From a virus (lineage: Duplodnaviria > Caudoviricetes): a DNA stretch of 64,000 nt. The position numbers were made by a program, and so were the translations under genes. This document shows positions 12,294 through 56,929 of the stretch, in pieces. How positions within the stretch are numbered: the stretch's first letter is position 1; each line of letters opens with the position of its first letter. Under the pieces are notes generated by a model. It worked only from the letters and a program-made list of their open reading frames with translations. It searched no databases and was not told the origin of the DNA. Location: IMG/VR virus record IMGVR_UViG_3300032219_002227, positions 1-64,000 of that record; one strand, 5' to 3'.

Positions 12294-14498
12294 ATGGGAT
12301 TAATACTGCGTACTACTGCCACTCCTAATGCAGGGACTACAACTTCTGTTAAAGGTTCACCACTTACATTCGCTGAAGGAGATGGTAACTTTGCCTATCT
12401 ACTGACTAATATGTCAGGTAGTAATATATCCATTTCTGGTTCTACTACAATAGCAGGATCATTAACTTTTGCTAATATATCATCTGGTGTTACTGAGAAT
12501 AGAGTTGTAGTTGTTGATACTAATGGTCTCTTTAAATATAGAACTGATGTAAGTTTACAAGGTGCAACAGGAGCTCAAGGTGCTACTGGAGCAGGAACTC
12601 AAGGAGCAACAGGCGCTCAAGGTACAACAGGTGCAGGTACGCAAGGTGCAACTGGAGCCCAAGGTGCTGCTGGAACTGGTACTCAAGGTGCTACTGGTGC
12701 TCAAGGAGCAGCAGGAGCTGGTACTCAAGGCGCTACTGGTGCAAACGGAGCTCAAGGAGCAACAGGAGCTCAAGGCACAACAGGTGCCGGAACTCAAGGA
12801 GCAACAGGTGCTCAAGGCGCTACTGGCACGGGAACCCAAGGCGCAACTGGGGCACAAGGCACAACAGGTGCCGGAACTCAAGGAGCAACAGGTGCAAACG
12901 GCGCTCAAGGAGCCACTGGTACTCAAGGCGCTACTGGCGCCGGTACTCAAGGTACTACTGGTGCACAAGGAGCAGCAGGTACAAACGGAGCTCAAGGTAC
13001 TACTGGTGCTCAAGGCGCTACTGGCGCCGGTACTCAAGGTACTACTGGTGCACAAGGAGCAGCAGGTACAAACGGAGCTCAAGGTACTACTGGTGCTCAA
13101 GGTGCAACAGGTGCTGGAACTCAAGGCGCAACCGGCGCTCAAGGTGCTACTGGTACGCAAGGTGCAACTGGTGCAACAGGTACAGGAACTCAAGGCGCAA
13201 CAGGCGCTCAAGGTGCAACTGGTGCACAAGGTGCAACTGGTGCACAAGGTGCAACAGGAACTCAAGGTGCTACTGGTGCTCAAGGTACTGCTGGAACAAA
13301 CGGAGCTCAAGGTGCTACTGGCGCTCAAGGCACTGCTGGAACAACGGGCGCTCAAGGCGCAACAGGCACAACAGGTGCCCAAGGTACAACTGGTACAACA
13401 GGTACTCAAGGCACAACTGGTACTACCGGAGCTCAAGGCACAACAGGCACAACCGGAGCTCAAGGCACAACTGGTGCTACCGGAGCTCAAGGTACAACTG
13501 GTACAACAGGTACTCAAGGCACAACTGGTACTACCGGAGCTCAAGGTACAACTGGAACAACTGGAACTCAAGGTGCTCAAGGCGCTAATGGTGCTCAAGG
13601 CACTGCTGGAACAAATGGAACTCAAGGTGCTCAAGGCGCTCAAGGTACAACAGGTGCAACAGGTACAGGTACTCAAGGCGCTCAAGGAGCTCAAGGTACA
13701 ACAGGTGCAACAGGTACAGGTACTCAAGGCGCTCAAGGCGCTCAAGGTACAACAGGTGCAACAGGTACAGGTACTCAAGGCGCTCAAGGCGCTCAAGGCG
13801 CTCAAGGTGCAACAGGTGCTGGTGGATCTGCTGGTACATCTTTTACCTGGTTAGGAGCTTGGTCATCAGGACCTACTTATACTCCTAATCAAGTTGTTGA
13901 ATATCAAGGTAGCTCTTGGATTTCTATCTTAGCTAATTCTTCTACACCACCTCCTGGTCAACCTACATATTGGTCATTAATGGCAAGTCAAGGAACTCAA
14001 GGCGCAACAGGTACAGGTACTCAAGGTGCTCAAGGAACTACTGGTACAACTGGAGCAAATGCTGGTATAACATCATATACTAATCCTGGTAATAATAGAG
14101 TTCTAACTTCAGTAGATGCAAATACTATCAATGCTGAAGCTAATCTTACATTTGATAGTGGTACTAATATATTAAATGTAAATGGAAGTATTACAGCTAC
14201 CGGAGATATAACAGCATATTTTACTTCAGATATAAGACATAAAAATAATATCCAACCTATTGAAAATGCATTAGATAAAGTTAAAAAAATAAGTGGTGTT
14301 ATATGGGAATGGAATCAAGAAACAACTGATGAAGTAACAAAAACACTTCCTAATACAGGTCTTATAGCACAAGAAGTACAAGAAATATTACCAGAAGTAG
14401 TTATTGAAAGACAAGATGGGTATCTAGCTATAGATTATTCTAAAATGTTAGGTTTAATAGTTGAAGCTATAAAAGAATTAGATAAAAAGATTTCCTAA
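12294..14498 (+). CDS. Collagen-like fibre protein with C-terminal intramolecular chaperone (peptidase S74-like)
   Basis: Long G-X-Y tract ([12 protein letters not shown]); [10 protein letters not shown]...GLIAQEVQ...AIDYSKM...VEAIKEL. Confidence 0.88.
12556..13820 (+). repeat. Collagen-coding tandem repeats
   Basis: Exact 87-bp duplication (units start at 12922 and 13009); about three 51-bp units near 13637-13790. Confidence 0.9.
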
Positions 14499-55201: not shown

Positions 55202-55399
55202 ATGATATTAACAATATATATTATTTCGGTTATTTACTGTGTATACAAGATGTATACTTTATATAGAAAAAACAATAACCCCTTATATTCATCTCCAGGG
55301 TTAGACACTTTAGCTATTATAGTTATGGCTCCGGTACTAATGGCTGTAGATGTATCTATGACTTGGATTAGATTGTATAAAGAAAGAAAACAACAGTAA
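55202..55399 (+). CDS. Small membrane protein
   Basis: Two hydrophobic stretches; promoter-like element at 55166-55197. Confidence 0.7.
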   Translation: MILTIYIISVIYCVYKMYTLYRKNNNPLYSSPGLDTLAIIVMAPVLMAVDVSMTWIRLYKERKQQ

Positions 55400-55400
55400 T

Positions 55401-55559
55401 TGTCAGGTGGTGAAAAGTGTGCACACACTGGTATACACACCCACTCGTCTCGTGGGCGCTGAAAACGAAACAGGTATTTAGGTATGGGTTGACCACAAAG
55501 CCGGCTTAATTTGCCAAATACTAAATCGCAGCGTGAAGGTTCGACTCCTTCCCTGACAG
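55401..55559 (+). ncRNA. tRNA-like RNA with expanded D-loop, non-canonical anticodon loop and 78-nt variable arm
   Basis: Acceptor TGTCAGG/CCTGACA; T-arm GAAGG-TTCGACT-CCTTC; stem CCCAC-TCGTCTC-GTGGG. Confidence 0.8.
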
Positions 55560-55561
55560 CC

Positions 55562-55800
55562 TGAACACAGTGAAGTCTAAAAAATTAGTCCGCAGGCCAC
55601 GGGATCGAAAACTCAGGAATGCCTCTTAACAATGCACAAATCTCCTCTAAATCGTTAGTTAGCGGTGTAAAGTAACTCCACTGGAGAATAGAGTTACAAA
55701 TAAGGTTGATTGGGATAGGGTTGCAGGGTAATGCCTGACCTGATAGGATAGTAACGCCAATCATAAAAGCAGATGTCCACGCACCCATCTTCTGCTTTCC
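55562..55800 (+). ncRNA. Putative structured ncRNA of unknown class
   Basis: GC-rich, no convincing ORF; stems GTAACTC/GAGTTAC, TGATTGG/CCAATCA, AAAGCAG/CTGCTTT. Confidence 0.5.
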
Positions 55801-55805
55801 TAAAT

Positions 55806-55892
55806 GCCCTTGTGGTGGAATAGGTAGACACGCAGGACTTAAAATCCTGTTCGCTGAAAAAGCGAGTGCGGGTTCGATTCCCGCTGGGGGCA
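55806..55892 (+). tRNA. tRNA-Leu (anticodon TAA), CCA not encoded
   Basis: CAGGA-CTTAAAA-TCCTG anticodon arm, long variable arm, GCGGG-TTCGATT-CCCGC. Confidence 0.95.
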
Positions 55893-55893
55893 C

Positions 55894-56544: not shown

Positions 56545-56929
56545 GGGGATAACCGGTATCGATCCGGATGTAGAGGTAATACTACATGCAGGCATTTGAG
56601 TATACTGCCTTAGAAGATACTAAACAATAAACGCTGAAGAATTATCTTCATTCACTTTCGAAGATGCAATGTCTTTCGTTGGTGCTGATTACGCAGTAGC
56701 TGCCTAATCAAACACGGGTAAGTAACCTAGGAACAGAACTACTTTGAGTATTCACGATCGACTCATTAAATAAGGACTGTGGATTAGTTTCTTGATGTCA
56801 TAAATCAAGTGGTGGAAACGACCATAACGGTCAGCCCTACTGATCAGATTCGTTCAGATCTAAGCATGTGAGACGTTAGTATTATTGTCTCTTTCGGAGA
56901 CGTGGGTTCGAATCCCACTATCTCCACCA
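56545..56929 (+). ncRNA. ssrA: tmRNA
   Basis: GGGGATA/TATCTCC-ACCA acceptor with G3.U70; GTGGG-TTCGAAT-CCCAC T-arm; tag frame 56633-56707 AEELSSFTFEDAMSFVGADYAVAA*. Confidence 0.95.

Follow-up and report, generated by a model that had tools for sequence, protein, structure and literature searches.

What is a 159-nt gene that is drawn like a tRNA, carries a 78-nt branched arm where a tRNA would have a short one, and has an anticodon-type loop that looks unsuited to decoding? The question is raised by a locus in a 64,000-nt stretch of Caudoviricetes DNA (the window), the first 64 kb of IMG/VR record IMGVR_UViG_3300032219_002227, which is a complete phage genome of 173,246 bp with terminal repeats and about 30% G+C. 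The RNA discussed here, tRNA-Leu(UAA), and tmRNA are the only tRNA-type genes of this genome. A first-pass annotation, made from the letters of the window, had described the locus as a tRNA mimic and had proposed that it either displays a functional domain on a tRNA scaffold or acts as a decoy for anticodon nucleases or synthetases.

Architecture of the tRNA-like RNA

The features of the locus are collected in Table 1. Direct reading of the sequence bore out the 7-bp acceptor stem, the T-arm, and the G discriminator that had been annotated, as well as the absence of U33 and of a purine at position 37 from the anticodon-type loop TCGTCTC, which has C at position 33 and U at position 37. The D-arm had been drawn with an inserted hairpin; a class II D-arm and a 14-nt insert are indeed present, but the hairpin itself, AGTGTG-CA-CACACT, was discarded because its 2-nt loop is sterically impossible. 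The RNA also has U8 and the sequence UUCGA in its T-loop. C74 follows at position 55560, and CCA is not encoded. Folding of the single sequence gives the proposed arms with an energy just modestly better than that of shuffled sequences (z = -2.1), and the case for the tRNA-like RNA therefore rests on comparative data.

Table 1. Features of the tRNA-like RNA locus, in window coordinates.
Feature	Position	Strand	Details
Small membrane protein gene	55202..55399	+	65 aa, two predicted helices; conserved; stop codon 1 nt before the tRNA-like RNA
tRNA-like RNA, whole gene	55401..55559	+	159 nt; tRNA numbering 1-73; 165 bits with covariance model R1
Acceptor 5' strand, TGTCAGG	55401-55407	+	Partner CCTGACA, 55552-55558; G73 = 55559
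Class II (Leu-type) D-arm	55410..55438	+	3-bp stem GUG/CAC (55410-12 / 55436-38); G18 and G19 retained; stem pairs covary (helix 2)
D-loop insert, 14 nt, phage-specific	55416..55429	+	Core GUGUGCACAC, a 10-nt palindrome
Anticodon-type arm	55440..55456	+	5-bp stem CCCAC/GTGGG; 7-nt loop U32 C33 G34 U35 C36 U37 C38 (55445-55451); all 5 stem pairs covary
Variable arm, 78 nt, branched	55457..55534	+	Stems CGCUG/CAGCG, CGA/UCG, AGGUAUUU/AAAUACU, then three-way junction; helices 4-7, 11 of 21 pairs with compensatory changes
Core motif AUGGGUUGACCAC in variable arm	55484..55496	+	Predicted small hairpin UGG-GUUGA-CCA; common to phage and bacterial copies
Apical self-complementary stretch AAGCCGGCUU	55498..55507	+	Palindrome at the variable-arm tip
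T-arm and acceptor 3' strand	55535..55558	+	T-arm GAAGG-UUCGACU-CCUUC, 55535-55551; helices 8 and 1 of the 54-sequence alignment

The RNA directly follows a gene for a small membrane protein, which falls into no Pfam or PHROG family and carries the motifs YIISxIYC and APVLxAVDxSxTWIR. At least 24 of 52 distinct relatives have the same ORF, ending 1 to 5 nt ahead of the RNA, and because of this close spacing co-transcription of the two, with release of the RNA by RNase P, is plausible.

Homologues and covariation

Full-length homologues of the tRNA-like RNA were found in 11 of 22 related phage contigs, at loci around relatives of the nearby ClpP-like gene. In a first alignment of 10 sequences, made with MAFFT and RNAalifold, 18 of the 41 predicted pairs showed compensatory changes. 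The set was then enlarged by an IMG/VR motif scan and a search with covariance model R1, a kind of search that the first-pass annotation had recommended; it established that conserved homologues exist, as 54 distinct relatives scoring 90 to 178 bits. Standard pairs fill 98.1% of the pair cells in the 54-sequence alignment, and 26 of 41 pairs have changed on both sides. Shuffled alignments never reached the observed values, and sliding the partners by 1 to 3 columns reduced pairing to 40 to 52%. This alignment was fitted to R1, which favours structure; the independent MAFFT/RNAalifold result for 10 sequences agrees with it.

The supported stems are the acceptor, D, anticodon-type, and T stems, together with three stacked stems of the variable arm. 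The cloverleaf arms (helices 1, 2, 3, and 8) are 97 to 100% paired, with compensatory changes present, and in the acceptor stem U1-A72 and G2-C71 each occur in 54 of 54 sequences while pairs 3 to 7 covary. The variable-arm stems CGCTG/CAGCG, CGA/TCG, and GTATTT/AAATAC, which had been proposed from the single sequence, are maintained by compensatory changes in the relatives.

Standard annotation tools do not report the family. ARAGORN in default mode called 0 of 53 members, and near the element it reported just tRNA-Leu(UAA), at 55806-55893, and tmRNA, at 56545-56929. Against Rfam 15 the element had no match at the gathering score or at E values up to 10, RF00005 included. These checks, too, had been put forward at the outset, and they left the element with neither a known Rfam family nor a default tRNA call. 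Among the isolated phages of INPHARED, T-arm fragments were the only matches to the tRNA-like RNA; an exact 25-mer scan of IMG/VR gave zero matches; and in the literature we found no description of a giant-armed, Asp-type family of tRNA-like RNAs. From the comparative sequence evidence, we conclude that the tRNA-like RNA is almost certainly a real, selected, tRNA-derived RNA gene.

An anticodon-type loop with aspartate determinants

The sequence GUCU occupies loop positions 34 to 37 in 51 of 51 members, so that both the GUC triplet and U37 are invariant (51/51 each). A pyrimidine stands at position 33 throughout (41 C and 10 U among the 51); position 38 is C in 37/51 and A in 14/51. G73 is found in 49 of 51 members and is usually followed by C, CCA again being absent from the DNA. 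The window copy bears the complete family signature: U1-A72, G2-C71, the loop Y-Y-G-U-C-U-M, G73, and the GGGUUGACCAC core.

A review of tRNA identity names G73, G34, U35, C36, and C38 as strong, conserved aspartate determinants (PMC9976931), and the window copy has all five. The same review describes two further elements as important in bacteria, G2-C71 and G1-C72, the latter called crucial for bacterial AspRS (PMC9976931). This G1-C72 pair is absent from the family, its place being taken by U1-A72, the first pair associated with GatCAB, in 54 of 54 sequences. For bacterial GatCAB, Bailly et al. reported that U1-A72 promotes amidation of tRNA-bound Asp and that C36 is tolerated, that G1-C72 and a supernumerary nucleotide in the D-loop each block amidation, and that tRNA-Asp with U1-A72 and without U20A comes close to tRNA-Asn as a substrate for amidation (PMC1635274).

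One relative, L029, encodes 25 normal tRNAs, including a tRNA-Asp(GUC) with the loop UUGUCAC, in addition to a tRNA-like RNA with the loop UCGUCUC. Since L029 carries both, the tRNA-like RNA is not the phage's ordinary tRNA-Asp. In all likelihood it does not decode in the normal way.

A conserved core in the variable arm

The core motif AUGGGUUGACCAC was present in all 10 copies that had been found without use of the motif, exactly so in 9 of them; L013 has A for G at the position equivalent to 55488. The later homologue set was picked partly by this motif, and its constancy there is consequently not independent. The sequence of the putative hairpin UGG-GUUGA-CCA is invariant. Among 16 bacterial copies, described below, 11 have GGGUUGACCAC or something very similar. 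These observations, together with the compensatory changes in the arm stems, support the initial view of the variable arm as a conserved domain on a tRNA scaffold.

The arm core is missing from the second copy in L069, from bacterial copies L146/L143, and from a pair of copies with a UUC-type loop, and in all of these the loop, U1-A72, and G73 persist. Because they are retained where the arm core is not, the tRNA end and the loop appear to be read by something specific.

Copies in Bacteroidota chromosomes

Although R1 was built from phage copies, it identified 17 chromosomal copies, spread over 14 of the 151 Bacteroidota genomes sampled (110 to 213 nt, 58 to 107 bits, model positions 1 to 157), several of them deep within megabase contigs. 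This result overturned the reading of the element as a phage-specific RNA. Three of the genomes hold two closely spaced copies, which are in tandem in two cases. In the bacterial copies U1-A72 and G73 are kept, the D-loop is of the normal Leu type, and the anticodon-type loop reads Y-U-G-U-C-U-C, with U33; these copies likewise match no Rfam family. From 185,579 species genomes a strict motif pattern retrieved only two contigs, both from Cytophagales MAGs. One of these copies (L132/L134) is taken to be chromosomal because an AsnC-type regulator adjoins it; the other (L133/L135) has an ORF of the same size at the equivalent position.

A divergent Lrp/AsnC regulator of 153 to 167 aa lies just upstream of the RNA in 8 of the 10 bacterial loci tested. 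In E. coli, asnA adjoins asnC, a position that we take to match that of the bacterial tRNA-like RNA beside its Lrp/AsnC regulator. On the downstream side no conserved partner gene was found in bacteria, the genes seen there being DUF3078, AMP-binding, MerR, thioredoxin-like, TrmB-type methyltransferase, and lysS genes. The phage locus has no Lrp/AsnC neighbour, and the RNA is accompanied there by the small membrane protein gene, tRNA-Leu, and tmRNA. A rough tree, built from a short alignment, separates phage from bacterial copies and places phage copies without the D-loop insert nearest the bacterial group. Judged by these sequences, the phage gene is a copy of an uncatalogued family of tRNA-derived RNAs of Bacteroidota and their phages.

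One bacterial genome (G137) contains two tandem copies of 110 nt (L147, 1279-1389 and 1501-1610) with the loop CUUUCUC, a UUC or Glu-type triplet with U37 kept. They have U1-A72 and a short arm, and the core motif is absent.

Self-complementary loops in the phage copies

The core of the D-loop insert, GTGTGCACAC, is a perfect 10-nt palindrome, and a second one, AAGCCGGCTT, occupies the variable-arm tip (55498-55507). The insert is found in most phage copies and is absent from a few of them and from the bacterial copies; among its 36 distinct versions, 26 contain a palindrome of at least 8 nt, versus 12% of shuffles. The arm-tip site is occupied by about 12 different sequences, nearly all palindromic to the centre, which include AAGCCGGCUU, UAGCGCGCUA, GCUAGCUAGC, GCUUGCAAGC, AAGCAUGCUU, GUGCGCAC, and AAAUUAAUUU. 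Bacterial copies are mostly without both features.

The presence of two self-complementary loops in the phage copies suggests self-association. Cofolding of the arm tip gave a 10-bp intermolecular duplex, at -12.7 kcal/mol relative to two monomers, a prediction that would be obtained for any palindrome and proves nothing. Pairing between copies is indicated instead by the pattern of replacement, because a hairpin does not need its central four bases to be self-complementary and yet the replacements keep them so. We reasoned that the phage copies probably pair with one another as dimers or larger assemblies. An extension of this model, which we regard as quite unlikely, would make the phage version a self-assembling tRNA mimic: arrays joined by palindromes would gather dimeric host AspRS and GatCAB into a virus-made particle resembling a transamidosome, or would hold these enzymes captive, the RNA acting as an RNA-only organiser of aminoacylation enzymes.

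A possible role as an amino acid carrier

The best explanation that we can offer, and a tentative one, is that the RNA is a non-decoding carrier that is charged by AspRS, possibly amidated by GatCAB, and borrowed by an Asn-rich phage. According to this carrier model, host RNase P and 3' trimming would excise the RNA from the upstream membrane-protein transcript, and the host would add CCA. Charging with aspartate by the host AspRS would be expected because G34, U35, C36, C38, and G73 are kept, and the invariant U1-A72 pair would then permit GatCAB to convert the bound Asp to Asn. C33 and U37, together with the giant arm, would exclude the RNA from the ribosome. The product would be an off-ribosome carrier of aspartate or asparagine, brought along with tRNA-Leu(UAA) and tmRNA by an AT-rich, Asn-rich phage, whose large ORFs have 7.2% Asn, and the benefit to the phage would be a supply of Asn. 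No AspRS-class, GatB, or AsnB gene was found in the phage genome. By analogy, the tandem bacterial copies with a UUC loop would parallel amidation of Glu to Gln.

The distribution of the enzymes bears on this model to a limited degree. GatB was present in 14 of 14 RNA-bearing genomes versus 126 of 151 (83%) overall, a weak association with a one-sided chance of about 0.07. When 40 GatB-positive genomes were rechecked with laxer filters, none of the 40 had a copy of the tRNA-like RNA; at the level of the phylum, GatCAB is thus independent of the RNA. Genes with an Asn_synthase domain, some of which may be paralogues with other roles, occurred in 12 of the 14 RNA-bearing genomes, so the RNA does not serve as a replacement for AsnB in this sample. 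There was no avoidance of AsnB by RNA-bearing genomes among the 151, and AsnA was rare everywhere. A pattern search of four RNA-bearing genomes showed that the host tRNA-Asn also has U1-A72 and G73, which gives GatCAB an alternative possible substrate.

Other observations weigh directly against the carrier model. The G1-C72 pair important to bacterial AspRS is replaced by U1-A72. The phage copy has its 14-nt insert before G18-G19, where the loop of the bacterial copies is of the normal Leu kind, and since GatCAB is sensitive to D-loop size the insert may interfere with GatB. An off-ribosome carrier also needs an enzyme to release or use the amino acid; none was found, and the downstream genes vary. 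Finally, the model leaves the invariant GGGUUGACCAC motif, U37, and the phage palindromes unexplained.

Alternative explanations

Two alternatives give the RNA a binding function. In one, which is possible although we would not favour it, the variable-arm module (the three-way junction, GGGUUGACCAC, and the phage palindromes) is the active part and binds a protein, a ligand, or other copies, while the tRNA body serves for RNase P processing, for stability, and as a handle of L shape. On this view the Asp-like loop would provide a further binding site; otherwise, instead of being a carrier, the RNA would sense or regulate Asp/Asn metabolism. The core motif shared by phage and most bacterial copies fits such a role, as do the palindromes, which indicate assembly, the long tRNA-shaped genes of related phages that have acceptor, D-arm, and T-arm in common around unrelated middles (see below), and T4 rnaC, a stable tRNA-cluster RNA with a T-arm and an acceptor-like stem. 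It sits poorly with the finding that the loop, U1-A72, and G73 are conserved at least as strongly as the arm, even where the arm core is missing. In the other alternative the RNA is a decoy or sponge for an enzyme that reads the anticodon loop of tRNA-Asp, such as an anticodon nuclease of the colicin E5 type, AspRS, or Tgt, and it shields phage translation or upsets that of the host. Nucleases of the colicin E5 type need Y-G-U, and the family never varies in Y33-G34-U35-C36, although two positions that matter for decoding, 33 and 37, are spoiled; the phage, moreover, retains this RNA as one of just three tRNA-type genes, and self-association would increase its local concentration. Tgt requires U33, however, which C33 in most phage copies would not suit, and no linked nuclease or defence gene is present. 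A counter-defence role also leaves unexplained a chromosomal bacterial gene that sits beside an AsnC-type regulator, often in tandem, and for this reason the anticodon-nuclease decoy of the first-pass annotation is not supported as it was stated. We consider a decoy function unlikely.

The remaining alternatives concern processing and translation. The tRNA-like mascRNA directs processing of MALAT1, and here RNase P cleavage at the 5' end of the RNA could similarly create the 3' end of the upstream membrane-protein mRNA, in keeping with the upstream stop codon, which precedes it by 1 to 5 nt in at least 24 of 52 relatives. A processing signal would have no need of the invariant GUCU loop, of U1-A72, or of a conserved 78-nt arm, and the bacterial copies stand alone behind their own regulator; we judge this explanation very unlikely. 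It is scarcely more credible, and in our estimate slightly less so, that the RNA is a working elongator tRNA for GAC/GAU that inserts either Asp or a different amino acid, Ser for example, specified by the long arm. It has the complete L-shape scaffold, a GUC anticodon in a 7-nt loop, and U33 in the bacterial copies and about one-fifth of the phage copies. Elongator tRNAs carry a purine at position 37, whereas U37 is invariant here, most phage copies have C33, the branched arm far exceeds the known class II arms, and the L029 phage has this RNA as well as a normal tRNA-Asp. An intron-bearing tRNA or a decaying pseudogene can be set aside with near certainty. In its intron mode (-i), ARAGORN does call the window copy, as tRNA-Trp(CCA) with a 78-nt intron, but it makes a call in just 16 of 53 relatives, assigning 10 different anticodons and placing the intron in 14 different ways, and covariation falls on the stems that the variable-arm reading predicts, not on those of the intron reading. 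The first-pass annotation had asked whether excision of the insert would give a normal tRNA; it would not, since removal of the arm still leaves C33, U37, and the D-loop insert, and the intron calls differ among relatives. A length of 78 nt is also too short for a group I intron. As for decay, the annotation had argued that intact pairing spoke against it, and rightly so: the 26 compensated pairs exclude a decayed tRNA.

Neighbouring elements and implications

A second conserved non-coding element lies just before tRNA-Leu, at 55703-55800 (+), and has no Rfam match. It consists of a helix, GGUUGAUUGG...GCCAAUCAU, around a variable hairpin, followed by a nearly invariant hairpin, GCAGAUG-UCCACGCACC-CAUCUUCUGC. 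The element occurs in at least 16 related phage contigs and is sometimes upstream, not downstream, of the tRNA-like RNA. Between the two RNAs, at 55615-55646 (+), a weak match to the Rfam abiF RNA (30.5 bits, where the gathering score is 37; E = 0.006 for a search of 2.2 kb) may be due to chance; it sits within a spacer that is conserved in a few relatives. The phage tmRNA (56545-56929, +) scored 69 bits and has the tag AEELSSFTFEDAMSFVGADYAVAA; 14 of 22 related contigs have a tmRNA with a similar long tag in the corresponding position. Elsewhere in the window, a 48% G+C island in the 30% G+C genome (12294-14498, +) corresponds to a 734-aa protein that has collagen repeats and, at its C terminus, a Peptidase_S74 chaperone domain; it is probably a tail fibre.

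Related phages have other over-long tRNA-shaped genes, of 87 to 182 nt, with a common acceptor (AGUCAGG... or UGACCCU...), D-arm, and T-arm and with unrelated middles. They were found in L029 (4212-4393, 4534-4679, 4977-5100, and 11993-12117), L019 (13554-13722 and 13918-14046), L016 (13611-13718), and L010-L013 (about 13100-13800), and one of them has a UAA "anticodon" between C33 and C37. These genes may form a wider class of expanded tRNA-like genes.

If the carrier model is true, bacteria and phages would own a dedicated, non-decoding tRNA-like cofactor for amino acid chemistry, and the phage would have an auxiliary metabolic gene made of RNA, invisible to gene-centred surveys of phage metabolism. 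Whatever its function, the family is a widespread and highly structured one that is absent from Rfam and from the output of tRNA finders, and it belongs to the RNA island that is best conserved among a large group of uncultured phages. The self-complementary loops of the phage copies would offer a clear and testable case of RNA self-association.

Comparison with known systems

Self-pairing RNAs include the HIV-1 dimerisation loop and the multimeric, phage-associated RNAs ROOL and GOLLD. Palindromes that are displayed in loops, variable in sequence and yet self-complementary, are a likeness to the phage tRNA-like RNA, as is association with phage tRNA regions; the latter is far smaller than ROOL and GOLLD and unrelated to them in sequence, and its self-association is a prediction.

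Species 1 RNA of phage T4 (rnaC) is also a stable RNA of unknown function that ends the tRNA cluster of a large phage. Unlike the tRNA-like RNA, it has no anticodon-type arm with GUCU, and R1 gave it 17 bits, below the scores of real T4 tRNAs. We found no homology to T4 rnaC or rnaD, and the AUGGUUGA octamer that they share with the tRNA-like RNA sits in a different structural context and is taken as chance. In the fold of T4 rnaC (L131, 1909-2047, -) the T-arm, CCGGG-UUCGAAU-CCCGG, is canonical, and the acceptor-like stem spans 7 positions, two of them U-U mismatches; rnaC is thus tRNA-like too, without being related to the family.

The bacterial Y RNA YrlA has a closed acceptor and uses its ends for the Ro-binding stem, whereas in the tRNA-like RNA the ends form the acceptor. 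Bacterial Y RNAs resemble it in being non-coding, in occurring also in phages, and in mimicking the tRNA elbow (PMC4201824). A link to Y RNA and Ro60 was rejected, there being no TROVE gene in the phage and no Rfam match.

In architecture the RNA has its counterparts in the class II elongator tRNAs of bacteria (Leu, Ser, and Tyr; RF00005). They have in common with it acceptor and T stems of 7 and 5 bp, U8, a D-stem of 3 bp whose Leu-type loop contains GG, a 7-nt loop closed by a 5-bp anticodon stem, the T-loop sequence UUCGA, and an extra arm that follows the anticodon arm and precedes the T-arm. The extra arm of the neighbouring tRNA-Leu even starts with the same CGCUGAAAA as that of the tRNA-like RNA. 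Extra arms of class II tRNAs have about 13 to 21 nt, in contrast to the 78-nt branched arm seen here, and the D-loop insert, C33, and U37 are further differences. The RNA is thus built like a class II tRNA and yet fails the operational tests for one (RF00005, ARAGORN, and U33 with a purine at 37).

For use outside translation, the Staphylococcus non-proteinogenic tRNA-Gly of cell wall synthesis provides a precedent, being tRNA-derived, employed off the ribosome, and kept from translation, as is proposed here (PMC7826273). That tRNA-Gly has normal size and anticodon loops, escapes through weak EF-Tu binding, and serves the acceptor enzyme FemXAB (PMC7826273), a known user, whereas no counterpart was found for the tRNA-like RNA. 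The tRNA-Asn of the indirect pathway and the engineered tRNA-Asp(U1-A72) share with it an AspRS-readable anticodon, G73, and U1-A72 (PMC1635274). Those tRNAs decode on the ribosome, for which the tRNA-like RNA, with its giant arm, looks unfit, and its charging and amidation are predictions. By analogy, the RNA resembles an engineered tRNA-Asp(U1-A72) in which positions 33 and 37 have been spoiled and to which a giant arm has been added, a likeness that, taken with the AsnC-type neighbour, supports the carrier model.
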